Source: Anaerolineaceae bacterium (GTDB taxonomy: Bacteria > Chloroflexota > Anaerolineae > Anaerolineales > Anaerolineaceae). Taken from it: 47,801 nt of DNA. The DNA lies in contig DAONEZ010000001.1 of assembly GCA_035403345.1 (NCBI GenBank), forward strand, positions 1 through 47,801. The letters are read 5' to 3'. The notes beneath the pieces are model-generated. The model ran no database searches. It saw only the letters and a list, made by a program, of their open reading frames with translations, and was not told where the DNA came from. The first letter of the stretch is position 1, and each line of letters opens with the position of its first letter. Below are positions 17,006-43,288 of the stretch, in pieces. Position numbers and translations under genes: made by a program.

Positions 17006-17105
17006 GTGATTAGTAACCAGGGATTAGTGAATAGGGACTACCTGCTTAAGATATTAGGACTCCTGCGCCAAATCACTAATCACTATTCACCAATCACTAT
17101 ACACT
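17006..17105. repeat. imperfect inverted pair of AATCACT-type heptad tracts immediately upstream of the recombinase gene
   Basis: Left arm gtgattagtaaccagggattagtgaatag. Right arm has 5 tandem heptads: AATCACT AATCACT ATTCACC AATCACT ATACACT (17071..17105). GATTAGTGAATAG pairs with CTATTCACCAATC at 12 of 13 positions. Confidence 0.75.
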
Positions 17106-17128
17106 TCCTTCCGGTGTACAATCAAAAT

Positions 17129-18163
17129 ATGCCGCCTGACAAAGAGATCCAGCCCCTGCTGCCCGGAGACCTGGCGCGCCTGATCGGCGAGAGCGCCAAC
17201 CAGGCCGCCGCGCGCACGCGCTTCCAGGAGTACCGTTCGCGCCGCGCCGAGCACACGCTGCGACGGCAGGACGCTGACCTGGCGTTGTTCCACGAGTTCC
17301 TCGAGCTTGCCAACCTGCGCACGGGCGACCTGGCGCAGGACGCGGCTGCCTGGCGACCGGTGACCTGGGGCCTGGTGGAAGCATATGTGAAGTGGCAATT
17401 AAATGAAGGCTACGCGGTAAAAAGCATCAACGTACATCTTTCCACCATTAAAACCTATGCACGCCTGGCCATGCAGTCCGGCACGCTCATGCCGCAGGAA
17501 TACGCCCTGATCCACGCGGTGCAGGGCTACTCGTACCGCGAGCAGGTACGCATCGACCAAAAGCGCCCGGTGCAGCGCATCGGGCTGAAGAAATCCGCGC
17601 CTGTCAAGATCACCAGCGAACAGGCCGCGCAGCTCAAGACCCAGCCCGATACCCCCCAGGGACGGCGCGATGCCCTGCTGATGTGCCTGCTGCTGGAGCA
17701 TGGACTGCGCGTGGGCGAGGTGACGCGCCTGGACGTATCCAACGTGGACCTGGCCGAGCGCGCCTTGCGCTTCTTCCGCCCCAAGGTGAACAAGGAACAG
17801 GTGCACCACCTGACACGCGACACCCTAACCGCCATGACCGCCTACCGTGATTGCGGGGACATGCCCATCAGCGGGGCGCTGTTGCGGCGCAGTAAAAAGA
17901 ACGAAGAACTGGGCTCACCGGGCATGACAGAGCGCGCCGTGACGGCGCGCGTATGCCTGCTGGGCGAGCGCCTGGGCATCCTGGGGCTCAGCGCGCACGA
18001 CTGCCGCCACTTCTGGGCCACCTCCGCCGCGCGCGCCGGAACCGATCCTTTCGTGCTGCAGGAAGCCGGCGGCTGGTCCTCGCTGGCCATGCCGCGCCGC
18101 TACGTGGAAGATAACGAAGTGGCCAACGAGGGTCTCCGCCTGGAAAAACCAGCCCAGGACTGA
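17129..18163 (+). CDS. tyrosine recombinase / phage-integrase-family site-specific recombinase
   Basis: Trimmed to ATG 17129 (MPPDKEIQPLL...). N-terminal SAM-like domain. Catalytic signature GLRVGEV ... HDCRHFWAT ... GGWSS ... RRY. Confidence 0.85.
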   Translation: MPPDKEIQPLLPGDLARLIGESANQAAARTRFQEYRSRRAEHTLRRQDADLALFHEFLELANLRTGDLAQDAAAWRPVTWGLVEAYVKWQLNEGYAVKSINVHLSTIKTYARLAMQSGTLMPQEYALIHAVQGYSYREQVRIDQKRPVQRIGLKKSAPVKITSEQAAQLKTQPDTPQGRRDALLMCLLLEHGLRVGEVTRLDVSNVDLAERALRFFRPKVNKEQVHHLTRDTLTAMTAYRDCGDMPISGALLRRSKKNEELGSPGMTERAVTARVCLLGERLGILGLSAHDCRHFWATSAARAGTDPFVLQEAGGWSSLAMPRRYVEDNEVANEGLRLEKPAQD

Positions 18164-18244: not shown

Positions 18245-18284
18245 ATGCATGGCAATTGGCCTTTCTATGGTTTGGAGGTGTAAG

Positions 18285-19904
18285 ATGCTCGTTCTATTGG
18301 GGTTCAACATACCTTTGCCGCCCGCCTTGTCTTTCCTGGCAAGTAAACCTGCTACTTTCCTGCTCAACCTGGCAGCCTGGTTCCTCATCGCCCTGCTGGT
18401 CAATTTTGTGCTCCTGCGCCTGCTCAAGCGCCTCACACGCCGCATCCCCGGCGAACTGGAGGACATCATTCTTGGCATCGTCAGCACGCCCCTGGTGCTG
18501 CTGGTGCTCCTGGCGGGCATCCGGTCCTCGCTCCACATCCTCGCGCTTTCTGAAGCAGTGCTCAAATGGGAGCGCGTGGTCTTTCTCACCATCCTGGTGC
18601 TGGTTCTCTCGCACGTGCTGGGCCGGCTGATCAAGGAAGTGCTGGTCTTTTACGGGGAGCGCTGGGCGGCGCGCACGGAATCGCGCCTGGATGACGTGCT
18701 GGTACCCGTGCTCAACCTGTTCGGCCCGTTGGTGCTGGTCACCATCGCCGCGCTGATCATCCTGCCGTTGTGGGGAGTCAATGTCACCTCTGTGCTGCTC
18801 GGCGCGGGGGTGTTGGGATTGGTGCTGGGGCTGGCGCTGCAGGAGACCCTGGGCAACATCTTTTCCGGCATCACCATCCTGGTGGAAGCGCCCTTCAAAA
18901 AGCACGACCTCATCCTGCTGCCGGATGGCCGCACCTGCGAGGTGGTGCGCCTGGGCATCCGCTCCACAACCTTCTTTTCGCTGGACGAACAGGCTACCAT
19001 TTACATTCCCAACAAGGTGCTGGAAACCAACACCCTGGTGAACCTCACCAAGCCCACCGCCGAGCAGCGCTATTCCATCGACATCCACGTGCACGCCGGC
19101 AGCGACCTGGCCAGGTTACAGTCGAACATATTGGACATCGCCCGCGGTCACCCTGCTCTGCTGGCGTCGGACACCTCCAAAAAGCTGGAAGCCGTCGAGT
19201 GGCTGGGCAATGCGATCCGGTTGAGGGCGCAACGCCTGCCTGCGGGAGAACCTGCACGGCTGCGGCTTGAGGAAGAAGCGGCTAGGAACCGGAAATCAAT
19301 CGAAAAGCTAGCGCTGGATGGCATGTTCAATCAACACGTGTGCGAATTGCGCGCTTCCCTGGCCAGCCTGCGCACCGAGATCAGCAGCCGCGAGGACGGC
19401 GGTTTGAGCAGCGTGGAACGCCAGGAACTATTCTGCAACTTTATCTCGCCGGTCGAGAACGCTGTGGAGCGCTGCCTGCACGCCGCCCGGGCCTGGCTAG
19501 AGGCGGACGATCCCTGGGTGCAGCCCAACGAAGGCCGCGCCCAGGCACGACTGTGGCAGAAGCGCAACGAGCAACTGCAATTGCATTGGGAACGCCTCAA
19601 AAAAGCCCTGCTGGAGGTCAGCTCACAACGCGAACTGCGCCTGGATGAGAGCACCCTGGATATGCTGAAATGGATCAAGAAGGAGTACAAGATCCCGCCC
19701 AGTTACTGGAAGGACCCGGTGGTGTCTGTGAAAGAGTTGAGCGCTGACAGCGCGCTGCTGCAGCTTTCGTATTACGTGGACAACATCCGCCTGGAACACG
19801 ACGGGCGCCCGCGGCGCGTGCGCGACGAGTTATCGCGCATGATCCACGAACTGCTGCAGGAACCCGCCCGGGAGCAAACGCCCGACCTGCTGATATCAAG
19901 GTAA
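18285..19904 (+). CDS. mechanosensitive ion channel family protein (MscS-like) with long C-terminal helical extension
   Basis: Start ATG 18285 follows GGAGGTGTAAG. TM helices followed by the MscS core LGNIFSGITILVEAPFKKHDLILLPDGRTCEVVRLGIRSTTF. Confidence 0.85.
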   Translation: MLVLLGFNIPLPPALSFLASKPATFLLNLAAWFLIALLVNFVLLRLLKRLTRRIPGELEDIILGIVSTPLVLLVLLAGIRSSLHILALSEAVLKWERVVFLTILVLVLSHVLGRLIKEVLVFYGERWAARTESRLDDVLVPVLNLFGPLVLVTIAALIILPLWGVNVTSVLLGAGVLGLVLGLALQETLGNIFSGITILVEAPFKKHDLILLPDGRTCEVVRLGIRSTTFFSLDEQATIYIPNKVLETNTLVNLTKPTAEQRYSIDIHVHAGSDLARLQSNILDIARGHPALLASDTSKKLEAVEWLGNAIRLRAQRLPAGEPARLRLEEEAARNRKSIEKLALDGMFNQHVCELRASLASLRTEISSREDGGLSSVERQELFCNFISPVENAVERCLHAARAWLEADDPWVQPNEGRAQARLWQKRNEQLQLHWERLKKALLEVSSQRELRLDESTLDMLKWIKKEYKIPPSYWKDPVVSVKELSADSALLQLSYYVDNIRLEHDGRPRRVRDELSRMIHELLQEPAREQTPDLLISR

Positions 19905-19930
19905 AATTAGGTCACTGCAGGAAAGGCTGT

Positions 19931-20125
19931 GTGACCATGGATCGCTGGCGTTCTCTTTTTTCTAATCTTAACCTTGCGGACGGCATCCTGGCGGGGCTGT
20001 TCCTGCTGGTGATGGCGCTGCTGGGCAACAGCCTGGCACCCGGACCGGGTGCACTCATCGGCATCCTGGCAGCGATCGTGCTGCTGGTCATCGCCAAGCG
20101 CAAGCGGGATAAATTACAAAAATAA
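19931..20125 (+). CDS. small hypothetical membrane protein
   Basis: 64-aa ORF with two hydrophobic helices and a KRKRDKLQK tail. No homology call. Start codon uncertain (GTG 19931 or ATG 19937). Confidence 0.4.
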   Translation: MTMDRWRSLFSNLNLADGILAGLFLLVMALLGNSLAPGPGALIGILAAIVLLVIAKRKRDKLQK

Positions 20126-20149
20126 TCCCGAAATCCCGAAATAACTCAA

Positions 20150-20181
20150 TTGACATAACTCTACAGTAAGTGTAGAGTTAT
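20150..20181 (+). promoter_or_regulatory. regulator-gene promoter (TTGACA-N17-TAGAGT) overlapped by dyad ACTCTACA-N5-TGTAGAGT
   Basis: ttgacATAACTCTACAgtaagTGTAGAGTTAT. The dyad (20158..20178) sits 5 bp further from the -35 than in the three target promoters. Confidence 0.65.
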
Positions 20182-20208
20182 GTAATATTATCGACAGGCA
20201 GGCGCAGG

Positions 20209-21039
20209 ATGAGATTCACCATCGGGCAGATCTCCAAACTCACCGGGATATCCGCTAGCGGCATCCGCTATTATGAAGAAGCGGGCGTGATCTCCCCCGT
20301 GCGAGGGAAGAACGGCAAGTACCGCGATTTCTCCATGCACGAGCTGCAACTGCTACTCACGTGCAAGCAATACCGTGATTGCGGGTTTAGTTTGCCCGAA
20401 TCCGTTGAACTGCTGAATAAGTCCGGCGTGCAGGACGTGCGGGATCAACTGGCCACACTGGCAGCGAAATTGAAGCAGACCATCACCCACAATCAACTGC
20501 TATATGAACTCATCGAACAGAAAAGCAATGAACTGGAATGTTTGTTTCACGAAGAGCCCTGCTGCGAATTGATCAATCATCCTGCGCTCTACCGCTTCAA
20601 GCTCTGGCAGCCGGGCGCGCCTGAGGAGATCTGTTTACCAGACGACCAGGTTGTTTATTGGATGAAACTAGCCCCATTCACTGACTCCTGTCTGCTGCTT
20701 TCCGCGGAAAACTTCCTCAACGGCACAGGCGACCTGGAGACGGATTGGGGTATGTCGATCGATGAGCGCTACGCCCAGGGTTTGAACCTGCAAACAGGGC
20801 CGCATGGAGTGTACTTCTCCTCCGGCGAGTGCGTGAAAACAGTGGTCCCGGTTACGGATGACCTGTGCATCCCCTCCGCCACTCTGCAACCTGCGCGCAA
20901 CTTTATGCTGAAACACCGGCTGCAGATGAGAGCCCCGGTTATCTCACGGATGTTTTACCTCACCAACACCAAAAACCGCTTCCAGCGCTACGACGAGCTT
21001 TGGATCCCGGTTGAGCAGGCAATTAAAGGTATTGGATGA
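20209..21039 (+). CDS. MerR-family transcriptional regulator with C-terminal effector-binding (GyrI-like, BmrR-type) domain
   Basis: 276 aa. N-terminal HTH MRFTIGQISKLTGISASGIRYYEEAGVISP..GKYRDFS, coiled-coil linker, ~165-aa C-terminal domain. Confidence 0.85.
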   Translation: MRFTIGQISKLTGISASGIRYYEEAGVISPVRGKNGKYRDFSMHELQLLLTCKQYRDCGFSLPESVELLNKSGVQDVRDQLATLAAKLKQTITHNQLLYELIEQKSNELECLFHEEPCCELINHPALYRFKLWQPGAPEEICLPDDQVVYWMKLAPFTDSCLLLSAENFLNGTGDLETDWGMSIDERYAQGLNLQTGPHGVYFSSGECVKTVVPVTDDLCIPSATLQPARNFMLKHRLQMRAPVISRMFYLTNTKNRFQRYDELWIPVEQAIKGIG

Positions 21040-21857
21040 AATTCAGTATCAGTCAAATCTCCAGGTTAACCGGTCTATCGCCCAGCGGCATCCGCTTTTA
21101 CGAGCGAACAGGCGTCATCTCCCCGCTGCGCAGTCCCCATGGCAAATACCGCGATTTTTCCATGCAGGAGCTGCAGTTGCTGCTCAATTGCAAGCAATAC
21201 CGAGATTGCGGATTCAGCATGAAGGAATCGCTGGAGCTTTTGAACAACTCCACGGTGCAGGATGTGAAAGAGCAATTGACGCTCCAATGCGAAAAACTTG
21301 AACAAATGGTTACCGAAAAACAACTGCTCCTGGAGCTGCTCAAACGCAAGACCCGTGAGATCGACTGCCTGTATCAAGAGCAGCCCTGCATTGAATTGAG
21401 CACCCTGCCCGCTGTGTTCCGCTTCAAACTCTGGCAACCCGGCGCGCAGGAAGGCAGCTTCACGCCCTATAATGAGGTCCTGCGCTGGCTCGAACTTGCG
21501 CCGCTGACCGTCTCCAGCCTGCTCATCCCGCAGGAGAGTTTCCTGCATGGCACGGGGAACCTCCAGGCGGATTGGGGTCTGTCCATTGAGGCCAGTTACT
21601 TGGAGCGCCTCAAGCGATCCACCGGAGCCTTCAGTGTGCATCACCCGCAGGCGATGTGCGTGCACACCTTTGTGAAGGTAAATGTAGATATGAGCATCCC
21701 GGCGGCGGAGTTGGAACCCGCCCGGAAGTTCATTGAGGAGCACCACCTGCAGGTCAACGGGCCGATCATCACAGGTCTGTTCTACCTGACCAACTACGCT
21801 GAAAAGCTCACGCGCATTGACCAGTTGCGCATACCGGTAATTCCTGCCCTTTCGTAA
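21036..21857 (+). CDS. MerR-family transcriptional regulator, paralog of the upstream gene
   Basis: 273 aa. MKFSISQISRLTGLSPSGIRFYERTGVISP..GKYRDFS. ATGA start/stop overlap with the preceding gene. Colinear similarity over the full length. Confidence 0.85.
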   Translation: MKFSISQISRLTGLSPSGIRFYERTGVISPLRSPHGKYRDFSMQELQLLLNCKQYRDCGFSMKESLELLNNSTVQDVKEQLTLQCEKLEQMVTEKQLLLELLKRKTREIDCLYQEQPCIELSTLPAVFRFKLWQPGAQEGSFTPYNEVLRWLELAPLTVSSLLIPQESFLHGTGNLQADWGLSIEASYLERLKRSTGAFSVHHPQAMCVHTFVKVNVDMSIPAAELEPARKFIEEHHLQVNGPIITGLFYLTNYAEKLTRIDQLRIPVIPALS

Positions 21858-21886
21858 ATTCACTTCCACCAATTTGTTAAAAACCC

Positions 21887-21917
21887 TTGACTTTACACAT
21901 TGTGTAGAGTGTATGCT
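21887..21917 (+). promoter_or_regulatory. MerR-type promoter TTGACT-N19-TATGCT containing dyad ACTTTACA-N5-TGTAGAGT
   Basis: ttgACTTTACAcattgTGTAGAGTgtatgct. The -10 ends 83 nt before ATG 22000. Confidence 0.75.
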
Positions 21918-21999
21918 ATTCACATTGTGAGGTGGAGAGCTGGACATCAAGTACGCCTTTCACCTGGCTAATCCCAATATTTTTGATCGGAGGAGTAAG

Positions 22000-23976
22000 A
22001 TGAGCAAGCCGAAGAAATTGAATCTGTCACGTCGAGATTTCATCAAAGGGGCAGCCATGGCAACCGGAGCAGGCATCCTGGCCGGCTGCGCACCCAAGGT
22101 GGCTGGAACTCTGACACCGACTGAGGCTCCTGCTGGACCGTCAGCACCAGCAGCCGCTGAACCGGGCGGCGGTGGAATGCCGTTTGGTAACCCTGCCACA
22201 CCTGCCACTGCTCCAGCCGGTTATGTCCTGGGATACACCAGCCAGGTGGATTGGCTGGGCAAGCCCCCTGTCATCGCCGACGCAGATATCGCTGATACAA
22301 AAGATGTCGAATTTTTAGTCATTGGTGCCGGGCATGCTGGTCTAATGGCTGCATTGAGTGCCGTGGAATTGGGTAAGAAGACCGCCATAATTGAAAAACG
22401 GGACGAAGCTGGATTCTATACCGATTACTGGCACCGCGTGGGTGAGGATATCGGTCATGTGAACTCCAAATGGTTGATTGACCGCGGTTATGGTCCTTAT
22501 GATACCGGTGAGATCGTGGATGAGTTCGTCAAGCGTTCCGGCGGACGGGTTGACCCGCGCCTTATCAAAATGTATGTTGAAAATTCCGGCGCTATGTTCG
22601 ACCATATGGTCGAAATCTACAAATCTTATGAAGATTTGCGCAAGGAACGCTTCAGCAAAGTGGAATTCACATATATTGGCGAAAATCCAAGTACAGTCAC
22701 ATACGATTTCTCGAACATGATGAGCGAGGAAATGCTCTTCAACCAGACTCAAAAAGGTCTCAAAGGCAGCGATTATCCCATTGAACTTAACGGATATAAG
22801 ACCTGGCCGACCAATGCCATGTTCCAGGGACCTGTGCTGCATCAACCCGTGATGCCGTTTGTGTCTGCTTTGCGCTATTTTGAAACGTTCATGGATCAGA
22901 AGGTGAAAGACCTGGGCGGTGAATACTACTACGAGCACACCGCAATCGTGCTCACCCAGGATGAAAGCGGCGCAGTCACAGGTGCGGTCGTCCAGAACAA
23001 AGAGGGGAAATACATCAAATTCGCGGCCTCCAAGGGTGTCCTGGTTGCCACTGGTGACTTCGGCGCCAACTCTGATATGTGCTGGGCGCTGATCAATGAC
23101 CAGATGGAGTGGGCGGAACGCGCCGGCAAAGCCAGGGGGCAGCTGGCTGGTATGTACCAGGATGGAGCTGGTCACAAAATGTGCTGCTGGGCTGGCGGAA
23201 TGATCGAACCGCTTCCGCGTCCCACCATGGGCATGGCCTCTGCAGCCGGTGGACCGTGGGGCATGACCCCCATGCTGCAACTTAATGCCGATGCAAAGCG
23301 CTACGCCAACGAAGCAGCTATCTGCTGGCTTGGACACGTAGCCTTAAGGCAACCCAAAGGTTTGTTGACATCTGTGACCGACAGCAAGTACATGGATTCG
23401 ATCACAATTGCAGGGCTCGATCACGGTGGACCCAACTTTGGACGCGGCGACCTGTGGGAGAAGGATTTCCAGGAAGATATGGCCAAGGTAATGGGTACCG
23501 GTTCCGCTGGTTCCCCTGTTCGAGGAATCACCGTCGCCGAGCGAAACGCCTCCAAGGTTTATGGCGCTAACACGCTCGAGGAACTGGCTGGTTACCTGGG
23601 GTATGAAGGCGCACTGGCAAAGACCTTCGTTGACTCGATCAACCGTTACAATGAGCTGTGCAAATCCGGGTTTGATGCTGACTACGGCAAGGATCCGAAG
23701 GCATTGATTCCCATCGACACTCCGCCGTTCTACGGCGTGGTAGGTCAGAACTCTGGACAAATGTCTATCGGACTGGTCACCCTGGCGGGTATGCTTACGG
23801 ATGAGAACCTGAACGTACTCAATAAGGAAGGCAAACCCATAAAGGGTCTCTATGTGGCCGGCAACACGTTGGGCGGTCGTTATGGCGAAGCGTATGTCAC
23901 GCCGTACGCAGGCAACTCGGTCGGCATGGCGCTCACGCACGGCTGGCTGGTCGGGAAAACCATCGCCGCATTGTAA
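22000..23976 (+). CDS. Tat-exported lipoprotein, FAD-dependent oxidoreductase (FAD_binding_2 / fumarate-reductase-KstD superfamily-like)
   Basis: 658 aa. Twin-arginine motif SRRDFIKGAA, lipobox LAGC, Pro/Ala/Gly linker, dinucleotide fold FLVIGAGHAGLMAA, C-terminal GLYVAGNTLGG...GNSVGMALTHG. Confidence 0.85.
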   Translation: MSKPKKLNLSRRDFIKGAAMATGAGILAGCAPKVAGTLTPTEAPAGPSAPAAAEPGGGGMPFGNPATPATAPAGYVLGYTSQVDWLGKPPVIADADIADTKDVEFLVIGAGHAGLMAALSAVELGKKTAIIEKRDEAGFYTDYWHRVGEDIGHVNSKWLIDRGYGPYDTGEIVDEFVKRSGGRVDPRLIKMYVENSGAMFDHMVEIYKSYEDLRKERFSKVEFTYIGENPSTVTYDFSNMMSEEMLFNQTQKGLKGSDYPIELNGYKTWPTNAMFQGPVLHQPVMPFVSALRYFETFMDQKVKDLGGEYYYEHTAIVLTQDESGAVTGAVVQNKEGKYIKFAASKGVLVATGDFGANSDMCWALINDQMEWAERAGKARGQLAGMYQDGAGHKMCCWAGGMIEPLPRPTMGMASAAGGPWGMTPMLQLNADAKRYANEAAICWLGHVALRQPKGLLTSVTDSKYMDSITIAGLDHGGPNFGRGDLWEKDFQEDMAKVMGTGSAGSPVRGITVAERNASKVYGANTLEELAGYLGYEGALAKTFVDSINRYNELCKSGFDADYGKDPKALIPIDTPPFYGVVGQNSGQMSIGLVTLAGMLTDENLNVLNKEGKPIKGLYVAGNTLGGRYGEAYVTPYAGNSVGMALTHGWLVGKTIAAL

Positions 23977-24000
23977 TTGCATCAAACTAAAAGTCGTTCC

Positions 24001-24034
24001 GGGGACTGCTGAGATTTCAGCAGTCCCCTTTTTT
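24001..24034 (+). terminator. rho-independent terminator
   Basis: GGGGACTGCTGA-gatt-TCAGCAGTCCCC followed by TTTTTT. Confidence 0.85.
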
Positions 24035-24079
24035 ATCAAAGCCAGTTGAAGAAAATAAAAAAATGAATCAAGAAACCAC

Positions 24080-24110
24080 TTGACTCTACAGTAGCTGTAG
24101 AGTCTATAAA
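24080..24110 (+). promoter_or_regulatory. MerR-type promoter TTGACT-N19-TATAAA containing dyad ACTCTACA-N5-TGTAGAGT
   Basis: ttGACTCTACAGtagCTGTAGAGTCtataaa (23-bp perfect palindrome). The -10 ends 82 nt before ATG 24192. Confidence 0.8.
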
Positions 24111-24191
24111 TATAGATGCAGGGGTGCGATTTTTGTAGATTCCGCCTCTTGCGGTGTTCCTGTTCCACATTCCATTCTGTCGGAGGAGAAG

Positions 24192-25919
24192 ATGAACAAG
24201 AAAGTAGATCTATCCCGTCGTAACTTTATGAAGGGGGCGGCGCTGGCTACCGGCGCCGGGATCCTGGCAGGCTGTGCACCCAAGACATCCACCCAGGCTC
24301 CAGCTGCACCCCAGGCACCGGTTGCTGCTGGTGCGCTGGACTGGCTGGGAACTGAGCCGGAGATCAAGGACATCGCAGAGACCGTTGAGAGCGATGTAAT
24401 CGTCATCGGCGCTGGCACCGGCGGTGCGTACGTGGCAGCCTCCTGCCTGGAAAAAGGGCTGAAGGTCGTTTTGCTGGAAAAGAACGACAAGCCCAGCACA
24501 GTACGCAACGACTGGGGTGCCATCGGTTCGAAGTGGCAGATCGAAGGCGGTGCCAAGGGATTGGATAAAGCCACCATCCTGCATTATCACGCCATGTATT
24601 GCGCCAACCGCATCGACCAGCGTTTGCCGCGCATCTGGGCGGATGAGAGCGCTGAAGCGATCGATTGGATCGGCGACCTCATCATCAGCAAGGGCGGCAT
24701 GTTCGATTGGGAAGGCGGCTACGAACCCGATTTTGAGCACACATCCTCCTATCCCAAGTTCCCCACCGGTCATAGCGCTTTCTGGCCTGGTCCTGACCTG
24801 AGCACCGCCAAGATGATGAAGGAATATATCGAGGGTATGGGCGGCAAGTACTATTTTGAGACACCTTTTGTGAAATTTGAGCATGAGGGTAAGAAGGTCA
24901 AAGCCGCCATTGGCAAGACCAAAGATGGCAAGTACATCCGCTTCGTGGGTAAAAAAGGCATCGTGCTGGCTACCGGCGGCTACCAGGGCAATGTGGAGAT
25001 GCTCAAGGCACTACAGCCGCAGGACCTGATGGTGATGAGCCCCATGGCAGGCCAACCCTCTCACACCGGTGACGGTCACAAAGCCTGCCTGTGGATGGGC
25101 GCTGCGTTTGACGAGTGCCACACCAGCATGATCTTCGACCGCTGGGGACTGCTGCCAAACGAGGTGACCGCCACCCAAACTGTTCCAACTTTGTTCTGGC
25201 TGGGCTCACAGCCCTGGCTCAAGGTGAACCTGCTGGGCGAGCGTTTCTGTAACGAGTCGCAGCCGTACGACTTCATCGTACACGCCGCTGCGCGCCAGCC
25301 GGGTAAGTGCTACGCCGCCATCATGGATTCTACCTGGTTCCAACAGGTACAGGAATTCCAGACAGTAGGCTGCAGCCGTATCTTCCCCTTCCCCAATGGC
25401 AGCCCGAACGATCAGCCCTTCTATGTTCCGCCTGGCACCGACCTGAAAGCCATTGAAGAGAACGGCAAGAAGATCTGGCAGGGCTACATCGACAGCGGTC
25501 ACCTGCAGCAGGCAGATACCCCTGAGGAATTGGCCAAAAAGTTGAACATCCCTGAGGCTACCTTCGCCGCAACCTTCAAGCGCTACAACGAACTGGCCAA
25601 GGCAGGCGAGGACCAGGACTTCTTCAAGGATTCCTACCGCTTCCTGCCGCTTGAGAAACCCCCTTATTACGGCATTCGCCTGACCGGCATGATCCTCTCC
25701 ACCATGGATGGCATCCGCATCGATACGCAAATGCGCCCCCTGGATGAGGAAAACGTACCGTTCGAGGGTCTACATGTCATCGGAGACACCTCAGGCAGTT
25801 ACTTCGCCCACACTTACCCCAACCTGTTCACCGGCTACGCCAACGGTCGCACCACCGTGTACGCCCGCCGCGTAGCGCGCATCCTGGCTGGCGAGCCCGT
25901 GGATCTGCCGAAAGCATAA
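24192..25919 (+). CDS. Tat-exported lipoprotein, FAD-dependent oxidoreductase (paralog 2)
   Basis: 575 aa. SRRNFMKGAALATGAGILAGC, VIVIGAGTGGAYVAA, ATGGYQGN, GLHVIGDTSGSYFAHTYPNLFTGYANGRT. Confidence 0.85.
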   Translation: MNKKVDLSRRNFMKGAALATGAGILAGCAPKTSTQAPAAPQAPVAAGALDWLGTEPEIKDIAETVESDVIVIGAGTGGAYVAASCLEKGLKVVLLEKNDKPSTVRNDWGAIGSKWQIEGGAKGLDKATILHYHAMYCANRIDQRLPRIWADESAEAIDWIGDLIISKGGMFDWEGGYEPDFEHTSSYPKFPTGHSAFWPGPDLSTAKMMKEYIEGMGGKYYFETPFVKFEHEGKKVKAAIGKTKDGKYIRFVGKKGIVLATGGYQGNVEMLKALQPQDLMVMSPMAGQPSHTGDGHKACLWMGAAFDECHTSMIFDRWGLLPNEVTATQTVPTLFWLGSQPWLKVNLLGERFCNESQPYDFIVHAAARQPGKCYAAIMDSTWFQQVQEFQTVGCSRIFPFPNGSPNDQPFYVPPGTDLKAIEENGKKIWQGYIDSGHLQQADTPEELAKKLNIPEATFAATFKRYNELAKAGEDQDFFKDSYRFLPLEKPPYYGIRLTGMILSTMDGIRIDTQMRPLDEENVPFEGLHVIGDTSGSYFAHTYPNLFTGYANGRTTVYARRVARILAGEPVDLPKA

Positions 25920-25940
25920 TCATACAGAACTTACCCAAAA

Positions 25941-25973
25941 TCAGCCCTCTTTCCCGAGAGGGTTGATTTTTTT
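25941..25973 (+). terminator. rho-independent terminator
   Basis: TCAGCCCTCT-ttcccg-AGAGGGTTGA (one G-U pair) followed by TTTTTTT. Confidence 0.8.
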
Positions 25974-26055
25974 CCAGGCATCAGATCCGATGCCATTTGC
26001 CAATATCAGGGCAGAATGTCATCATTTATTAGAGAAAGAACTCACCACAGTATCC

Positions 26056-26086
26056 TTGACTCTACAGTAACTGTAGAGTTTACAAT
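26056..26086 (+). promoter_or_regulatory. MerR-type promoter TTGACT-N19-TACAAT containing dyad ACTCTACA-N5-TGTAGAGT
   Basis: ttGACTCTACAGtaaCTGTAGAGTttacaat. The -10 ends 80 nt before ATG 26166. Confidence 0.8.
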
Positions 26087-26165
26087 AACGCGCTTCTAAT
26101 AGGATCTATGCCAGATCCGCTTATCAGTAGCAAGCCCAATTTTTATCCCTATATGGAGGAGCAAG

Positions 26166-27890
26166 ATGAGCAAAATAATAGATCAGTCCCGTCGTAACTT
26201 CATGAAAGGCGCAGCCCTGGCTACCGGCGCAGGTATCCTGGCCGGATGCGCGCCCAAAGTAGCCGCACCCGCTCCCGCGGCCACTGATGCACCGGCTGCT
26301 GCAGGTCCGGTGGATTGGCTAGGTGTTGAGCCCGAGATCGGCGATGTGGCCGAAACCGTGGAAACCGATGTCGTCGTGATTGGCGCTGGTACCGGCGGTG
26401 CTTACACAGCCGCGTCCTGCCTTGAAAAGGGTCTGCAGGTCGTGATCCTTGAAAAAGGTAAAACTGTCAGCACCCTGCGCAATGACTGGGGTTCCGTGGA
26501 TTCAAAATGGCAGCAGGCTGAAGGCGTGAAGCTCGACAAAGCCGCTATCCTGCACGTTCATTCCATGTACTCAGCCAACCGCATCGACCAACGCCTGCCC
26601 AAGATTTGGTTGGAAGAAAGCGGCGCTGCCATCACCTGGATCGGCGAGCTTCTCGAGAGCAAAGGCGCTAAATTCTATTACGAAGGCGGCTACGAACCCG
26701 ATTTCTCCCCCACCACCTACCCCAAGTTCCCCACCGGTCACAGCGGCGACTTCCCCAAGGGCACCGATGGCGCTTCCATCATGAAAGCGTACATCGAGGA
26801 ACTCGGCGGCAAGTATTACTTTGAGACCCCCTTCGTCAAGTTCGAACATGACGGCAAAAAAGTAACCGCCGCCATCGCCCAGAACAAAGAAGGCAAGTAC
26901 ATTCGTTTCATCGGCAAAAAAGGCATCGTCCTTTCCACCGGTGGTTACCAGGGCAACGTGGACATGCTCAAAGCCCTGCAGCCCGCTGATGTCATGCTCA
27001 TGATGCCCCCCGCTCCTGGCCCCAACTCTGGTGACGGCATCAAGGCTTGCCTGTGGATGGGCGCTGCCATGGACGAAACCCATGCCTCCATGCTGTTCGA
27101 CCGCATGGGATTGCTCCCCAACGAAACCCCTGCCAACATGACCGTGCCCGGGTTCTTCTGGCTCGGATCACAGCCCTGGCTCAAGGTGAACCTGCTGGGC
27201 GAGCGCTTCGTCAACGAATCTGGCCCCTATGATTTCATCCTGCATGCCGCTGCCCGCCAGCCCGGCGCAACCTACTGCGCCATCATGGACGCCGATTGGT
27301 TCAAACAGGTACAGCAGTACCAGACCATGGGCTGTTCCCGCATCTATCCCTTCCCCAATGGCAGCCCCAATGACGTCTTCAAGACCGGCGGACTGGAATC
27401 CACAGGGACCGACCTGGCAGTCATCGAACAGGAATGGACCGCCATCCTGGAAGGGTTGAAGACAAGCGGACACCTGCAGCAGGCCGATACCCCCGAAGAA
27501 CTGGCCGCCAAGCTGAACATCCCCGCGGAAACCTTTGCAGCCACCGTTGCGCGATACAATGAACTGGCCGCCGCCGGCGAAGACACTGACTTCTACAAGG
27601 ATTCCTACCGCCTGATGCCGCTCGCCAAGGCACCCTACATGGGCATCCGCCTGACCGGCTGGCTGCTCTCCACCCTCGATGGCATCCGCATCGACACCCA
27701 GATGCGCCCCATGGACGCCAACAACGTGCCCTTCGAAGGCCTGCATTTGGTCGGTGATTCCTCCGGCAGCTACTTCGCCCACACCTACCCCAACCTGTTC
27801 ACCGGGTATGCCAACGGCCGCACCACCACCTTTGCCCGCCGCGTAGCCCGCGTCCTGGCTGGTGAGCCTGTTGAATTGCCGAAAGCCTAA
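26166..27890 (+). CDS. Tat-exported lipoprotein, FAD-dependent oxidoreductase (paralog 3, close to paralog 2)
   Basis: 574 aa. Colinear with 24192..25919, roughly 70% identical by eye. Same Tat, lipobox and FAD motifs. Confidence 0.85.
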   Translation: MSKIIDQSRRNFMKGAALATGAGILAGCAPKVAAPAPAATDAPAAAGPVDWLGVEPEIGDVAETVETDVVVIGAGTGGAYTAASCLEKGLQVVILEKGKTVSTLRNDWGSVDSKWQQAEGVKLDKAAILHVHSMYSANRIDQRLPKIWLEESGAAITWIGELLESKGAKFYYEGGYEPDFSPTTYPKFPTGHSGDFPKGTDGASIMKAYIEELGGKYYFETPFVKFEHDGKKVTAAIAQNKEGKYIRFIGKKGIVLSTGGYQGNVDMLKALQPADVMLMMPPAPGPNSGDGIKACLWMGAAMDETHASMLFDRMGLLPNETPANMTVPGFFWLGSQPWLKVNLLGERFVNESGPYDFILHAAARQPGATYCAIMDADWFKQVQQYQTMGCSRIYPFPNGSPNDVFKTGGLESTGTDLAVIEQEWTAILEGLKTSGHLQQADTPEELAAKLNIPAETFAATVARYNELAAAGEDTDFYKDSYRLMPLAKAPYMGIRLTGWLLSTLDGIRIDTQMRPMDANNVPFEGLHLVGDSSGSYFAHTYPNLFTGYANGRTTTFARRVARVLAGEPVELPKA

Positions 27891-27915
27891 GTATTTTTTG
27901 CACAATAGATGAATC

Positions 27916-27950
27916 TCAGCCCTTGCCTATCAGGCAGGGGCTGATTTTTC
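27916..27950 (+). terminator. rho-independent terminator
   Basis: TCAGCCCTTGCCT-atc-AGGCAGGGGCTGA followed by TTTTT. Confidence 0.8.
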
Positions 27951-27994
27951 TTCACGTGATACACTAATTAAATGATTTCACTGGAGGTGTAGGG

Positions 27995-28852
27995 ATGAAA
28001 CGGATGATTGTCAACGCGGATGATTATGGGCATACCCCCGGAGTGGCGCAGGGCATCCGCCGGGCCCACCTGCAGGGTATCGTCACCTCCACGAGCGCCA
28101 TGATGAACCGCCCGGCGGCGTTCGCCGAGGTGGCCCGGACTGCGGAGCTCTGCCCGCGGCTGGGCGTAGGCGTGCACCTGGTGCTCACCTCGGGTGTGCC
28201 CGAGCTGCCGCCGGAGCAGGTGCCTTCGCTGGTACTGCCGGATGGGCATTTCCCCAGGCTGGATGGGTTTATCGACCGGCTGCCCGGGCTGAATCTGGAC
28301 GAGGTCAGCGCGGAATGGCACGCCCAGGTGGAAAAATTCATCCAGGCGCGCGAGGCGCTGCCCGACCACCTGGATTCACACCACCACTCATCGTATTTCA
28401 CCGCGCCCCTGTTCGAGCGCATGCTGCGCCTGGCAGAGGAACTGGGTTGCCCAATACGCAAACCATTTGCCGAAATGTCAGCCGCCGGGGCGGAATACCT
28501 GCCCGCGCACCTGGCAGGAGCACCGGGGTACGGCTACACCCCAGAACAGGGACAGCGCTTGCCGCTCACCACGGATAAATTCATCACCGCTTTCTGCGAC
28601 CAGGGGGCTACCCTGGAAAACCTGCTGCACATCCTGCGTGAGATACGCGACGACCATCATCATGAGACCTTTGAGCTCATGTGCCACCCTGCCGTGGTAA
28701 ACGAGGAACTGATGGCCATCTCGGACTATAACGAACCGCGCGGTCGTGAGTTGGAAATACTGACCAGCGCGGAGATGAAGGCCGCAGTAAAAGCAGCTGG
28801 CATTGAATTGATCAGTTTTGGGCAACTGCTAAAGACCTGGCAGGCAGATTAA
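27995..28852 (+). CDS. YdjC/ChbG-family carbohydrate deacetylase
   Basis: 285 aa. N-terminal MIVNADDYGHTPGV motif and HLDSHHH metal-site motif typical of the YdjC family. GGAGGTGTAGGG RBS. Confidence 0.85.
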   Translation: MKRMIVNADDYGHTPGVAQGIRRAHLQGIVTSTSAMMNRPAAFAEVARTAELCPRLGVGVHLVLTSGVPELPPEQVPSLVLPDGHFPRLDGFIDRLPGLNLDEVSAEWHAQVEKFIQAREALPDHLDSHHHSSYFTAPLFERMLRLAEELGCPIRKPFAEMSAAGAEYLPAHLAGAPGYGYTPEQGQRLPLTTDKFITAFCDQGATLENLLHILREIRDDHHHETFELMCHPAVVNEELMAISDYNEPRGRELEILTSAEMKAAVKAAGIELISFGQLLKTWQAD

Positions 28853-39571: not shown

Positions 39572-40192
39572 GTGAGCATGGAAAAGATCGATCTGCGCAA
39601 GCGTTATAAATCCCTGTATTCCCCTTCCACCAAAGGCTTCTCCCTAATCGAGATCCCTCCCCTGAATTACCTGATGATCGACGGACATGGTGACCCCAAT
39701 ACCTCGCAGCGCTTCCAGGACGCGCTGCAAACGCTCTACTCCATCTCCTACACGCTCAAGTTTGCGCTCAAGAAATCACAGGGCGTAGATTTTACCGTGA
39801 TGGGATTGGAAGGACTATGGTGGATGCCGGACATGCGCGAATTCACCGTGGAGCGCAAGGCGGACTGGGATTGGACGCTGCTCATGCTGCAGCCGGATTT
39901 CATTACCCCGCAGATGATAGAGGAGATCGCCCGCAGCCTGACCGCCAAAGGCAAAGCCCCCCTGGCGGCCGAGACGCGCCTGGAGACCCTTGAAGAAGGA
40001 CTATGCGTGCAGATCCTCTATATTGGTGCTTACAAGGACGAAGGTACTGTTATCGCGGGCATGCACGCCTTCATTGCCGACCAGGGATATATGCGTACCG
40101 GCAAGCACCATGAGATCTACCTGAGCGACATGCGCCGCGTGGCACCGGAGAAGAACCGCACCATCCTGCGCCAGCCGATAAAAAAAGCCTGA
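39572..40192 (+). CDS. GyrI-like small-molecule-binding domain protein
   Basis: About 205 aa (GTG 39572 or ATG 39578). Pattern YLMIDGHGDPN...GLEGLWW...ILYIGAYKDEG...HHEIYLSD is typical of stand-alone GyrI-like proteins. Confidence 0.75.
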   Translation: MSMEKIDLRKRYKSLYSPSTKGFSLIEIPPLNYLMIDGHGDPNTSQRFQDALQTLYSISYTLKFALKKSQGVDFTVMGLEGLWWMPDMREFTVERKADWDWTLLMLQPDFITPQMIEEIARSLTAKGKAPLAAETRLETLEEGLCVQILYIGAYKDEGTVIAGMHAFIADQGYMRTGKHHEIYLSDMRRVAPEKNRTILRQPIKKA

Positions 40193-40196
40193 CCTG

Positions 40197-40610
40197 TCAG
40201 GTCAGAGCTTTGGCTTCTTCACTCAATTCTTTCTCTTTATCCGATTCAGGCACCAGCACGATACCGTGCGGCAGCGGTTTTCCATCCAGGTCAACATGGA
40301 TGAAAGTGATAAATCCGCGCACAGCCAGTTTGCCGCCCGCCCGTACCTCTATGTTGCTCACGATCTTGGTCTCGCCGGTGAGCACCGCGCGGCTGGTGAA
40401 AGTCACTAATTCGCCTTTTTTAATCGGGCGGGTGAAGGTCATGCCGTGGATCTTCAGGCAGACTATATTCTCAGGCTTGGTCATTGAAGCGGCTGAAATG
40501 AATCCGGACTCAACGAACCATTCCGCTGTGCGACCTGCGTAGAGGGTACCGTGATGGTTCAGGTCTTCCCCTTTTACAAGATGAACACTGGTAAAGATAG
40601 GAATCGCCAT
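40197..40610 (-). CDS. hotdog-fold acyl-CoA thioesterase
   Basis: 137 aa. DLNHHGTLYAGRTAEWFVESG is typical of the YciA/4HBT-type family. Confidence 0.8.
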   Translation of the reverse strand: MAIPIFTSVHLVKGEDLNHHGTLYAGRTAEWFVESGFISAASMTKPENIVCLKIHGMTFTRPIKKGELVTFTSRAVLTGETKIVSNIEVRAGGKLAVRGFITFIHVDLDGKPLPHGIVLVPESDKEKELSEEAKALT

Positions 40611-40677
40611 TTTTTCTCCTTAATTAACTTACCTATTGTACTGCTGAACTGCCGCCTAACATGATCAACGGAAAATG

Positions 40678-40706
40678 ATTGAAATTGGGCAACGAATATT
40701 GTATGA
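40678..40706 (+). promoter_or_regulatory. sigma70-like promoter TTGAAA-N17-TATGAT for array gene A
   Basis: Read directly. Followed 6 nt later by GGACTCCAGTT. Confidence 0.6.
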
Positions 40707-40807
40707 TGGAAATGGACTCCAGTTTTCTCCATCGTTGATACATATTATTTTCATCCCTGGATCATTGCCCTGGAGGGGGAATGAGAATTCCTGTGTGGGA
40801 GGGAGAA

Positions 40808-41761
40808 ATGAGAACAAAGTTTTCACGCGTGTTGATCTTGCTGGTGTTGGTGACGTTCCTGACCGCTGCTTTTCTGCCGCAGTCACTAGTGCAGGCACAG
40901 GGAGTGCCGCTTGGAGGGATCGTTCCCGTGCTGCTCAGCCCGCACGATACCATCCTGGCGAAGAACCCCACTTACAAGTGGACACCGGTGTTCGGCGCGG
41001 AGGTGTACCAGTACCAGGTGTGGAAAGGCAGCACAAAAGTGCTGGATAAGTCACCCGATGCTGATATTTGCTCAGACAGCCTGTGTGAACGGACACCGGC
41101 ATTTACCCTGGGGTATTACGCCTACAAGTGGCGCGTGCGGGCCCGGATCGATGGCTCGTGGAAAGCGTGGTCGGCTTACATGAACTTCACCGTTTCGCCG
41201 CCAAGTTTCTCGTCCACTTTCAATAACGAGATGAACGGCTGGGCCAAGATGTCCGGCAAGGATTATTACAAGTCGTCCACATATATTTACACCCTGGGTA
41301 TGGCGAACTGGTGGTCAACCCTGCGCCGCACCAGCGGTCAGTACACCGATTTTAAGTATTCCGCCAATATGAAACGACCTTCAGGGTATTCCCCCAACTA
41401 CCTGGTCATCCGCATGGGATCGAATACCCTGCCCACCAATGGACGCTGGTATCCGGGGTACTATTTCGGCTATGACAACTGGGGAAACTGCTTCATTTTT
41501 GAAATGAGCACAACAGGTTCCTCTACCACCCTCTTCTACAAACCAGCCTGCCCGGTGAACAAGATGGGCTGGAATGTTATAACTGTAGAGGCGATCGGTT
41601 ACAAATTCTGGTTTTATGTAAACGGCAGCCTGATGAAATTCTTTACAGACCTCACGTTCCCCCGGGGGTACGTCGGGATCGCCAGTTATCGCAATTCAAC
41701 AGCATCCCAGACCTTCTACGTAGATTGGGCCAAGTTGGTAGTAAAGGAAACCGCGCAATAG
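40808..41761 (+). CDS. array paralog A: secreted protein, N-terminal C-x4-C module plus C-terminal ConA-like (DUF1080/LamG-like) domain
   Basis: ATG 40808 after GGGAGGGAGAA (alternative ATG 40781). Signal peptide. NPTYKWTPVFGAEVYQYQVW...CSDSLC...YKWRVRA. C-terminal domain has GW..., YTDFKYS, WYPGYYFGY, GWNVITVEAIGYKFWFYVNG, YVDWAKL. Confidence 0.85.
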   Translation: MRTKFSRVLILLVLVTFLTAAFLPQSLVQAQGVPLGGIVPVLLSPHDTILAKNPTYKWTPVFGAEVYQYQVWKGSTKVLDKSPDADICSDSLCERTPAFTLGYYAYKWRVRARIDGSWKAWSAYMNFTVSPPSFSSTFNNEMNGWAKMSGKDYYKSSTYIYTLGMANWWSTLRRTSGQYTDFKYSANMKRPSGYSPNYLVIRMGSNTLPTNGRWYPGYYFGYDNWGNCFIFEMSTTGSSTTLFYKPACPVNKMGWNVITVEAIGYKFWFYVNGSLMKFFTDLTFPRGYVGIASYRNSTASQTFYVDWAKLVVKETAQ

Positions 41762-41782
41762 GTCCTGCAACCTATCGTACAA

Positions 41783-41813
41783 AGGCAGGTTCTCAAGGAA
41801 CCTGCCTATTTAA
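41783..41813 (+). terminator. rho-independent terminator
   Basis: AGGCAGGTTC-tcaa-GGAACCTGCCT followed by ATTTAAT. Confidence 0.65.
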
Positions 41814-41868
41814 TCCACCATACGACAATTAATCCTAAATATTGGTGTGGACAGATCGATCCTCTTGC

Positions 41869-41897
41869 TTGACTTTGCTGGAAAAATCCCGTATTAT
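41869..41897 (+). promoter_or_regulatory. sigma70-like promoter TTGACT-N17-TATTAT for array gene B
   Basis: Read directly. Confidence 0.6.
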
Positions 41898-41949
41898 TAT
41901 GATAATAAATATCTTAATACTCTTTATTATCGTGAGAATTGGAGGAGAT

Positions 41950-42915
41950 GTGAAAAAGCTGCACCTGTTCGGTTCTTTGTTGATGCTGGTTGTGCTGATA
42001 GCTGCTCTCCTGCCGGTTGGCAGTGTTTCTGCCTCACAAGCGGGCAGGACCATCAGCTACATCCCTGTGACAACCACCCCGCTGGGTACCATCACTGACA
42101 CCACCCCTCTTTACCGGTGGACCCGAGTTTATACAGCCACCAAGTATCAATTCCAGGTATTTAAAGGCACTACGAAACTGCTGGATAAAACGGTTAAAAG
42201 CAGCGTGTGCGGAGCGGTGTACTGTTTTCAAACCCCTAGCCTGACCCTTGGCTACAACGTTTACAAATGGCGCGTGCGTGCCTTCGTAGGAGGTGCGTGG
42301 GGGGCCTACTCTGCATTCAGGACATTTACCATCTCCGCGCCCTCATTTGATACCCAGTTCAACTACGGCAGCACGGGGGGATGGGCGCGAAAATCCGGCG
42401 GAACTTGGGACTTGAGTGGTTTTTCCTATCATACCGAAGGGCTCCCCGACAAGTGGACCAATGCTTACTATACAGGCGGGCAATATACCGATTTTGACTA
42501 TTCTGCCCAGGTCTGGCGCTACGGCAATGATCCTGTTTACCTGGCAGTCCGAATGGGATCTACCGTGGGTCTATCAATGGATAAATGGTACCCGGGTTAC
42601 TATTTTGGATATAACAACCAGGGATATTACGCAATCTGGCGAGTGGCAAGTTACGGCGGGGAGCAGGAAATTGTCAGTGGATTGATCACCCCGGCTGTTA
42701 ACCAGAATGGGTGGAATACCCTGAGAGTAAAAGCTGTCGGCAACCAGTTCTGGTATTACATCAACAACATGCTGGTTTACAACTTTACTGATACCAGTTC
42801 AGAGAAACGCTTACGCGGCTTTGTAGGTGTTGCCACCTACCGCAATCCAGCATCTTTAACTTACGGTTTTTACATGGATTACGCCAAACTGGATGTGATC
42901 AAGACCCCCCAGTAG
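41950..42915 (+). CDS. array paralog B
   Basis: GTG 41950 after GGAGGAGAT. Signal peptide KKLHLFGSLLMLVVLIAALLPVGSVSA. TPLYRWTRVYTATKYQFQVF...CGAVYC...YKWRVRA. C-terminal WYPGYYFGY, GWNTLRVKAVGNQFWYYINN, YMDYAKL. Confidence 0.8.
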   Translation: MKKLHLFGSLLMLVVLIAALLPVGSVSASQAGRTISYIPVTTTPLGTITDTTPLYRWTRVYTATKYQFQVFKGTTKLLDKTVKSSVCGAVYCFQTPSLTLGYNVYKWRVRAFVGGAWGAYSAFRTFTISAPSFDTQFNYGSTGGWARKSGGTWDLSGFSYHTEGLPDKWTNAYYTGGQYTDFDYSAQVWRYGNDPVYLAVRMGSTVGLSMDKWYPGYYFGYNNQGYYAIWRVASYGGEQEIVSGLITPAVNQNGWNTLRVKAVGNQFWYYINNMLVYNFTDTSSEKRLRGFVGVATYRNPASLTYGFYMDYAKLDVIKTPQ

Positions 42916-43259
42916 ACTCCAGTTTTAGTGCTTCGTCAATACAAAGGAGGCGGACTTGTTTCCCGCCTCCTATTCAAATATTGACCTCGATGGCAACTAT
43001 CCATTCACCCATAAGCGGTTAACTGGATTGAAAGTTCACATCTGATATTGATAAATTAACACACCCTTCATCGCTCTCCTTCAATACTTCTACGGGTACC
43101 TGGCATAAGTAACACATGGGCTGCCGGGCAAGCCAAGGTTTCCAATTGCATCCTCTCTATTGGTTTTTAAAAGCCGTCTTTACGTCGAATGCGAAAAAGG
43201 GTGATTCTACCCTTATTGTAATTTCATGGAGTTCAAATCCAGTCTACTTGCCCGACAGA

Positions 43260-43288
43260 TTGTTTTTCGCCAGTTAAAGTCGTATTAT
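43260..43288 (+). promoter_or_regulatory. candidate promoter TTGTTT-N17-TATTAT for array gene C
   Basis: Weak -35. Followed 6 nt later by GGAGTCCAGTT, as in gene A. Confidence 0.4.

Follow-up and report, generated by a model that had tools for sequence, protein, structure and literature searches.

Twin BmrR-like regulators and a shared 21-bp dyad as a candidate ligand-responsive switch for three exported flavoenzyme genes in an uncultured Anaerolineae bacterium

We consider a 47.8-kb stretch of DNA from an uncultured Anaerolineae bacterium (the window, by which we mean the whole stretch that was analysed), in which two tandem regulator genes of the MerR family, reg1 and reg2, lie upstream of three flavoenzyme genes, flav1, flav2 and flav3, and one 21-bp dyad stands both before the regulator pair and before each of the flavoenzyme genes. 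MerR-family activators bind dyads inside over-long promoter spacers of 19-20 bp and realign the -35 and -10 elements. Members of the BmrR type carry a C-terminal GyrI-like ligand pocket, and some members of the family, HspR for example, act as repressors. The nearest described relatives of the two regulators are BmrR of B. subtilis, EcmrR and BrlR, with which they have in common a length of about 275 aa, a MerR helix-turn-helix (HTH) and, in the predicted structures, the long coiled coil and the GyrI-like fold; like BmrR, they go with a dyad operator inside a 19-bp spacer. The metal-sensing branch (MerR, CueR, ZntR, PbrR/CadR) shares the HTH and coiled coil (template modelling (TM) score 0.6-0.78 to CueR over the N-terminal half) and the promoters with a spacer of 19-20 bp, and its operators, e.g. 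those of zntA and pbrA, have outer arms resembling TTGACTCT...AGAGT. The regulators in the window, however, have a 160-aa alpha/beta domain in place of the metal-binding loop.

On the side of the enzymes, the flavoenzymes share the FAD_binding_2 fold with the urocanate reductase UrdA, the flavocytochrome c3 fumarate reductase and the 3-ketosteroid dehydrogenase KstD, although identity to these is low. Little et al. describe flavin reductases of gut bacteria that commonly adjoin dedicated regulators and are induced by their own substrates; the regulators there are two-component systems, generic cytosolic HTH proteins or transmembrane proteins, with no occurrence of MerR (bioRxiv 10.1101/2022.12.26.521950). 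The locus in the window resembles those systems in having genes for exported FAD_binding_2 enzymes beside a transcription factor, so that the logic of an inducer that is also the substrate would apply, and differs from them in its Anaerolineaceae-like host and in enzymes without FMN_bind or cytochrome modules. Our literature search found no paper that pairs MerR regulators with these flavin reductases, the nearest being a 2025 preprint in which a MerR gene is the neighbour of the enoate reductase gene fldZ. Searches with ACTCTACA or TGTAGAGT paired with MerR gave noise only, and no paper describing the operator was found.

The dyad, ACTYTACA-N5-TGTAGAGT, occurs four times in the window by pattern search (Table 1), against 0.03 copies expected by chance, and its eight strand-hits are reached in none of 100 shuffles. 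There is no fifth exact copy elsewhere in the 47.8 kb, and a looser pattern with up to three mismatches gives no credible extra site over the whole window; an earlier note on this DNA had listed the same four positions. Three of the copies lie within flavoenzyme promoters in one common register, where the dyad begins at base 4 of the -35 hexamer and stops 1 bp short of the -10. These three TTGACT-N19 promoters had also been read from the letters before, and the sequence confirms them, with strong support from the footprint over 21 sites given below. The distance from the end of the -10 to the ATG, put earlier at 80-83 nt, is approximately right: it measures 82 nt for flav1, 81 nt for flav2 and 79 nt for flav3. 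The copy before flav3 is a perfect 21-bp palindrome. The half-sites are TACAC/GTGTA at flav1 and TACAG/CTGTA at flav2 and flav3, and the regulator site is a hybrid of these. A code in which each paralogue reads one half-site type was considered and dropped, as both types occur at L003, L004 and L006, where there is only one regulator.

The comparison with related loci carries the argument further. Among the GTDB species genomes, full-length relatives of reg1 and reg2 are found in metagenome-assembled genomes of Anaerolineaceae only (L001-L009), at 42-46% identity to reg1, and in all nine a single regulator gene is followed directly downstream by one or two flav2/3-like genes (64-85% identical). 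With these nine genomes and further metagenome or Logan contigs we can align 21 sites in the activation register, three from the window and 18 from related promoters of the form TTGACT-N19-TAnnnT (L001-L009, L081, L084, L095, L099, L105, L112, L131 and L198). Information is near-maximal from TTGACT through the dyad to TAnnnT and nil in the flanks, and the spacer is 19 bp at 21 of the 21 sites; the right arm is partly degenerate at three of them (L005, L009 and the second site of L084). Regulator identity between the comparative loci and the window is no more than 40-46%, yet -35, dyad and -10 are conserved. It is strongly supported by this footprint that the dyad and promoter form a real regulatory unit. 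On three (L099, L112, L198) of the six flavoenzyme contigs from the metagenome scan given below the operator-promoter precedes a flavoenzyme gene and no MerR gene is present on the contig, so the operator would appear to mark unlinked regulon members as well; the compact regulon proposed in the earlier note is to this extent drawn slightly too narrow. In three other loci (L002:12850-12900, L007:12825-12870 and L008:12825-12870) a conserved ordinary promoter, TTGAAT-N17-TACACT, follows a terminator ahead of a second flavoenzyme gene, and because it is free of the dyad, paralogous enzymes seem to be wired differently there.

We turn to the regulators themselves. Pfam MerR_1 is found above its cut-off in both (E 2e-12 for reg1, 2e-11 for reg2), which bears out the family named in the earlier note, and the two paralogous genes are joined by an ATGA overlap as described there. 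Their overall identity is 54%; it is highest across the HTH and wing (74%) and falls to 46% along the long helix and 47% in the C-terminal domain. The C-terminal 160 residues of reg1 and reg2 have no Pfam or NCBIfam match, and the NCBIfam scores of the regulators are far below every equivalog cut-off, HspR being among the weak N-terminal matches. AlphaFold models built from a 25-sequence alignment (predicted local distance difference test scores of 88.5 and 89.4) have in both cases an HTH, a single helix of residues 74-113 and an alpha/beta domain. The long coiled-coil helix of the MerR family is thus present in the prediction, where helix 74-113 superposes on CueR and BmrR. A Foldseek search of the PDB places full-length BmrR at the top for both models (E 9e-11 and 3e-11; TM 0.58), followed by BrlR and EcmrR, and isolated GyrI-like domains match as well (the C-domains of EcmrR, BrlR and BmrR, CtaZ and Rob; TM(target) 0.50-0.58). 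With hhalign, residues 3-272 align to positions 9-278 of a profile of eight MATE-linked regulators at 98.6% probability, and the three of these that were scanned with Pfam all carry GyrI-like.

The C-terminal domain of reg1 and reg2 is therefore best described as GyrI-like at the level of the fold (a duplicated beta-alpha-beta-beta arrangement supported by Foldseek and hhalign) and diverged beyond the Pfam model; the GyrI-like C-terminus claimed earlier holds for the predicted fold and fails at Pfam and NCBIfam. As a whole, the system in the window shows the features of the MerR family that can be examined, and lacks two of the BmrR subgroup. The first is a recognisable PF06445: the window domain is too diverged for it, while MATE-linked regulators that use the same operator do match. 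The second is control of a multidrug efflux transporter, since all three operator-bearing promoters outside the regulators' own precede FAD_binding_2 genes for enzymes exported by twin-arginine translocation (TAT), and no transporter gene is found among the neighbouring genes checked. Two further differences from BmrR are that the window has two tandem paralogues and three separately terminated targets, and that its regulators are not downstream in a target operon and have their own promoter with an operator shifted by 5 bp.

We consider it likely that reg1 and reg2 form a BmrR-like switch with ligand-dependent activation of the three flavoenzyme promoters, autorepression and two sensors. In the proposed mechanism each protein would combine a winged HTH with a long helix for coiled-coil dimerisation and, at its C-terminus, a domain of the GyrI-like fold that binds small molecules, and the dimers would sit on the 21-bp dyad, which occupies the over-long 19-bp spacer in the flavoenzyme promoters. 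Without ligand, -35 and -10 would be out of phase and the promoters weak. On binding a cytoplasmic small-molecule ligand, the bound dimer would untwist and bend the spacer and realign the hexamers, and the three flavoenzyme genes, each monocistronic and coding for a TAT-exported, lipid-anchored FAD_binding_2 protein, would be switched on. Most likely the two paralogues would feed two different ligands into one set of operators, reg2 going with flav1 and reg1 with the flav2/flav3 type. As a mechanism this is ordinary and confirms the MerR paradigm; what is new are the target genes and the twin sensors.

The regulators' own promoter follows another design. The fourth dyad starts 2 bp past TTGACA, i.e. 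5 bp further downstream of the -35 than the other three, and the sequence confirms this shift as it was first described. The site TTGACA-17-TAGAGT, with 10 of 12 consensus matches, is the best sigma-70-like site that the promoter scan finds in 19900-28100. The shifted register TTGAC(A/G)-N2-dyad recurs in eight loci, where the dyad ends 22-30 nt before the start codon with no TAnnnT after it, and the dyad's final six bases, TA(G/A)AGT, are conserved at exactly 17 bp from the -35. Moving the dyad by 5 bp, half a helical turn, would thus leave the -35 paired at the optimal 17 bp with TAGAGT. Because this -10 is the right arm of the dyad itself, a regulator dimer on operator 1 would cover it and repress, which implies negative autoregulation. 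Autoregulation through the shifted copy had been suggested before; the recurrence in eight loci, the 17-bp promoter and the identity of the -10 with the operator's right arm support and sharpen it. One dyad would in this way serve two promoter designs, an under-wound 19-bp promoter that depends on the regulator and an ordinary 17-bp promoter in which the bound regulator would hide the -10, and a 5-bp move of the dyad would turn an activatable promoter into a self-repressed one.

Operator 1 also sits inside a longer perfect palindrome of 31 bp at 20153-20183 (ACATA...TATGT), with 13-bp arms ACATAACTCTACA...TGTAGAGTTATGT and a single-strand DNA fold of -11.6 kcal/mol (z-score -6.3). This extension is not conserved in the relatives, and we treat it as incidental.

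Several observations weigh against this picture. The ligand must act in the cytoplasm though the enzymes are exported. No operator is found upstream of the regulator in four Anaerolineaceae loci (L005, L007, L008 and L009), so autoregulation would not be universal, and the second flavoenzyme genes of L002, L007 and L008 are without the dyad. GyrI-like (PF06445) is found in neither regulator at E <= 0.01 and is absent from ten sampled relatives too, and the agreement with isolated GyrI-like domains is modest (TM 0.50-0.57, with CtaZ at 0.58). The connection between reg2 and flav1 comes from few lineages and one contiguous deletion, to which we return below.

Does the same operator exist outside this locus? 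Scanning metagenome contigs for exact copies of TTGACTYTACA-N5-TGTAGAGT gives at least 117 loci (L087-L203). In at least 91 of them, many from the human gut, the downstream gene encodes a MATE efflux protein of about 448 aa (Pfam MatE verified on one of these loci) and the centre of the operator reads TACAA-N3-TTGTA. In the MATE loci that were examined, the MatE gene is closely followed by the gene for a regulator of ~275 aa that has MerR and Pfam GyrI-like domains; this is the classical bmr-bmrR-like arrangement of BmrR, and these gut BmrR-like regulators go with the same 24-nt promoter, TTGACTCTACA-N5-TGTAGAGT, as is found in the window. At least four loci have the MerR + GyrI-like regulator gene directly downstream of the operator, and at least six have a gene for a TAT-signal flavoenzyme, with TACAG or TACAC at the centre. 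By this distribution the promoter-operator is a generic BmrR-like design across phyla and is not private to the locus; the mechanistic assignment is therefore stronger, and its novelty lower.

The regulator family is likewise widespread. A profile search of 1.84 billion representative proteins finds 120 clusters at E <= 1e-30, a number that rises to 1630 at E <= 1e-10; among the matches listed, almost every protein is full-length at about 270 aa, and in ten sampled members Pfam recognises the MerR HTH and nothing else. At least 120 clusters of MerR regulators of about 270 aa, with a predicted GyrI-like-fold domain that Pfam does not see, thus constitute a blind spot of annotation. The genomic context of ten members was checked and eight were informative, the other two being on contigs too short. 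The neighbour is a FAD_binding_2 flavoenzyme gene in four of the eight (three with FMN_bind), and in one case each a MatE efflux gene, an MFS transporter with a short-chain dehydrogenase (SDR), a Zn-dependent alcohol dehydrogenase (Zn-ADH) and an unidentified 447-aa protein. Readable promoters of the distant members have the form TTGACx-N19-TAnnnT around a dyad. The notion that the wider family consists of dedicated flavin-reductase regulators, which looked good at four of five neighbourhoods, was given up when three more gave MatE, MFS/SDR and the unidentified gene; on these neighbourhoods the linkage to flavin reductases appears recurrent in this branch, and not exclusive.

The three target enzymes have FAD_binding_2 at E 3e-29, 1e-31 and 1e-32. 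flav2 and flav3 are 72% identical and so fit the earlier description of three paralogous flavoenzymes well, with the qualification that flav1 is only about 28% identical to either. Export signals are present in all three, a twin-arginine motif SRR(D/N)F(I/M)KGAA with the lipobox LAGC behind it; the Pfam TAT_signal scores reach their cut-off or fall slightly short of it, and TIGR01409 is over cut-off for flav3. All NCBIfam equivalog cut-offs are missed widely, the best score being that of vinyl phenol reductase at 175 bits against a cut-off of 600. No electron-input module (multihaem cytochrome or FMN_bind) is found in flav1-flav3 with Pfam; the enzymes that adjoin distant relatives of the regulators do carry FMN_bind. 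The closest solved homologues of flav3 are UrdA, the flavocytochrome c3 fumarate reductase and KstD (E 1e-20 to 1e-16). In fumarate and urocanate reductases an Arg and the His of HxTMGG are catalytic. In flav3 (residues ~355-362 and 505-512) neither is kept: the Arg position of ELTTRD lies in SGPYD, with Tyr for Arg, and HHTMGG reads LSTLDG. From these replacements and the low identity, the substrate of flav3 is probably neither fumarate nor urocanate, and the changes hint at a chemistry other than the reduction of carboxylate enoates.

The nature of the ligand bears on the explanation that survives best beside ours, which we regard as a possible though doubtful one: a broad xenobiotic or stress response, in which promiscuous GyrI-like pockets would, like that of BmrR, respond to many hydrophobic or aromatic toxicants and call up exported flavoenzymes that detoxify these outside the cell and do not serve energy conservation. 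The identical promoter-operator with the same class of regulator before MATE pumps in at least 91 metagenome loci points this way, as do the MatE, MFS/SDR and Zn-ADH genes that flank relatives in the wider family, enzymes without an electron-input module or a partner gene, and the replaced catalytic Arg and HHTMGG of flav3. Against it, two diverged sensors and three enzymes argue for telling compounds apart, flavin reductases are found in four of the eight informative neighbourhoods of distant relatives, and the characterised exported FAD_binding_2 enzymes are mostly substrate-induced reductases of narrow specificity (bioRxiv 10.1101/2022.12.26.521950). Exported flavin reductases are a large enzyme class of anaerobes, most with unknown substrate; a ligand that switches on the regulator would be a first candidate substrate, the sensor with its defined operator would be an experimental handle, and the regulator-promoter pair could serve as a biosensor once transferred to a host.

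The next question is what the two regulators do side by side. Contigs L084-L086 have two tandem regulators, a 657-aa flav1 orthologue (90% identical) and a flav2-like gene. Each of the three operator contexts is present there, and across 37 nt the flav1 promoter of L084 is identical to that of the window. In a neighbour-joining tree reg1 groups with regA of L084 (67% identical) and reg2 with regB (50%), and the two clades together are sister to the single-copy regulators. On the strength of this topology the duplication of the regulator is old, and it coincides with the flav1 type. L081 comes from a close relative (80% identity in reg1, 87% in the MscS-type channel protein) and keeps reg1 with its shifted operator, as well as a flav2/3-type gene behind an operator-bearing 19-bp promoter. 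There, at L081:3266-3626 (cf. 21036-23976 of the window), one in-frame-looking deletion joins codons 1-67 of reg2 to codons 599-658 of flav1. The joint occurrence of reg2 and flav1 and their joint loss suggest that reg2 is tuned to flav1. Together with the conserved DNA-reading heads and the diverged sensor domains, they lead us to favour, on thin evidence, differently tuned sensors over obligate heterodimers, since single regulators suffice in ten lineages.

The competing idea is that the two regulators work chiefly as a reg1-reg2 heterodimer, a single asymmetric sensor on all four dyads, with co-translation through the ATGA keeping the two at 1:1. The overlap of the reg1 stop codon with the reg2 start codon, the tandem arrangement conserved in L084-L086, the single shared type of operator and DNA-binding heads that are 74% identical all agree with it. 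The coiled-coil helix, however, is only 46% identical between the paralogues, the two regulator genes are 46 nt apart in L084, L081 has reg1 alone with an intact operator and a flavoenzyme gene, and nine of nine GTDB genomes have a single regulator; we judge such a heterodimer unlikely. To be held at about the same low level is a joint reading in which the module works as a two-input logic device around a common operator: reg2 would have come with flav1, the ligands of reg1 and reg2 would differ, and the two proteins would compete or heterodimerise at the four dyads, so that either or both compounds set the levels of three enzymes and of the sensors, the branch as a whole being a recurrent sensor of flavin-reductase substrates across phyla. 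If this were true, ligands of the BmrR-like branch could be used to find the substrates of reductases of unknown function.

A different objection concerns the activation itself. The regulators might be plain repressors, the dyad between -35 and -10 blocking RNA polymerase until the ligand releases them, with no distortion of the DNA. The operator overlaps core promoter elements at all four sites, and repressors of the HspR type exist in the MerR family, HspR being also among the weak NCBIfam N-terminal matches noted above. We find this improbable, because occlusion gives no reason to conserve a crippling spacer length, and the 19-bp spacer is kept in 21 of 21 sites and also in distant family members with other dyads; a 17-bp spacer is seen at the regulators' own promoter alone.

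That the four dyads are merely a dispersed repeat, a hairpin or the end of a mobile element, unrelated to the adjoining regulators, is hardly credible: the dyads are strongly palindromic (single-strand DNA folding z-scores down to -6.3) and there is an integrase gene 2 kb upstream of the module, but the window holds no further copies, the register to -35 and -10 is fixed where the regulators are only ~43% identical and the flanks are unconserved, and the dyads precede the predicted transcription starts and have no Rfam match. Rfam gives no sign of a regulatory RNA in the 5' leaders of ~70-75 nt: no family reaches E <= 1 between 19900 and 28100, none passes its gathering score anywhere in the window, and no motif common to the three leaders is evident by eye.

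The coordinates of the features are collected in Table 1. A terminator-like hairpin is found 3' of each flavoenzyme gene, in agreement with the separate terminators proposed before; two come from the terminator scan and the one after flav2 was read by eye, the scan having listed its stem on the minus strand only. The gap between reg2 and the flav1 promoter (21858-21886) contains no terminator-like structure and is similarly short in L084, so read-through from the regulator promoter could give a basal expression of flav1.

Table 1. Coordinates of the promoters, operators, genes and terminators of the module (positions in the window)
Feature	Position	Strand	Description
-35 hexamer, regulator promoter	20150..20155	+	TTGACA; from sequence and promoter scan
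Operator copy 1	20158..20178	.	ACTCTACAGTAAGTGTAGAGT; shifted register; putative autorepression site
-10 hexamer, regulator promoter	20173..20178	+	TAGAGT, the right arm of operator 1; 17 bp from -35
reg1	20209..21039	+	276 aa; MerR HTH, coiled coil, predicted GyrI-like-fold domain
reg2	21036..21857	+	273 aa; paralogue of reg1; ATGA overlap with reg1
flav1 promoter	21887..21917	+	TTGACT 21887-21892, 19-bp spacer, TATGCT 21912-21917; operator copy 2 at 21890-21910
flav1	22000..23976	+	658 aa; TAT signal, lipobox LAGC, FAD_binding_2
Intrinsic terminator after flav1	24001..24028	+	terminator scan
flav2 promoter	24080..24110	+	TTGACT 24080-24085, 19-bp spacer, TATAAA 24105-24110; operator copy 3 at 24083-24103
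flav2	24192..25919	+	575 aa; TAT signal, lipobox, FAD_binding_2
Terminator-like hairpin after flav2	25945..25973	+	stem 25945-25962 CCCTCT/AGAGGG, then T-run TTGATTTTTTT; read by eye
flav3 promoter	26056..26086	+	TTGACT 26056-26061, 19-bp spacer, TACAAT 26081-26086; operator copy 4 at 26059-26079
flav3	26166..27890	+	574 aa; TAT signal, lipobox, FAD_binding_2
Intrinsic terminator after flav3	27916..27944	+	terminator scan

Upstream of the module, a 64-aa predicted membrane open reading frame without a Pfam match (19931-20125, plus strand) ends about 25 nt before the regulator promoter, and it is preceded by the gene for an MscS-type channel (18249-19904, plus strand); both show synteny with the regulator genes in L081 and L084. 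In L007-L009 the regulator is preceded by similar C-terminal ends (AKRRRD...). The integrase gene mentioned above, 2 kb upstream of the module, encodes a tyrosine recombinase of the Phage_integrase family (17006-18163, plus strand). Right after the flav3 terminator follows a gene of the YdjC-like carbohydrate deacetylase family (27995-28852, plus strand), with no operator and no evident link to the module. Further downstream, at 40001-44000, the G+C content falls to 0.50, against 0.53-0.60 in the rest of the profiled window.

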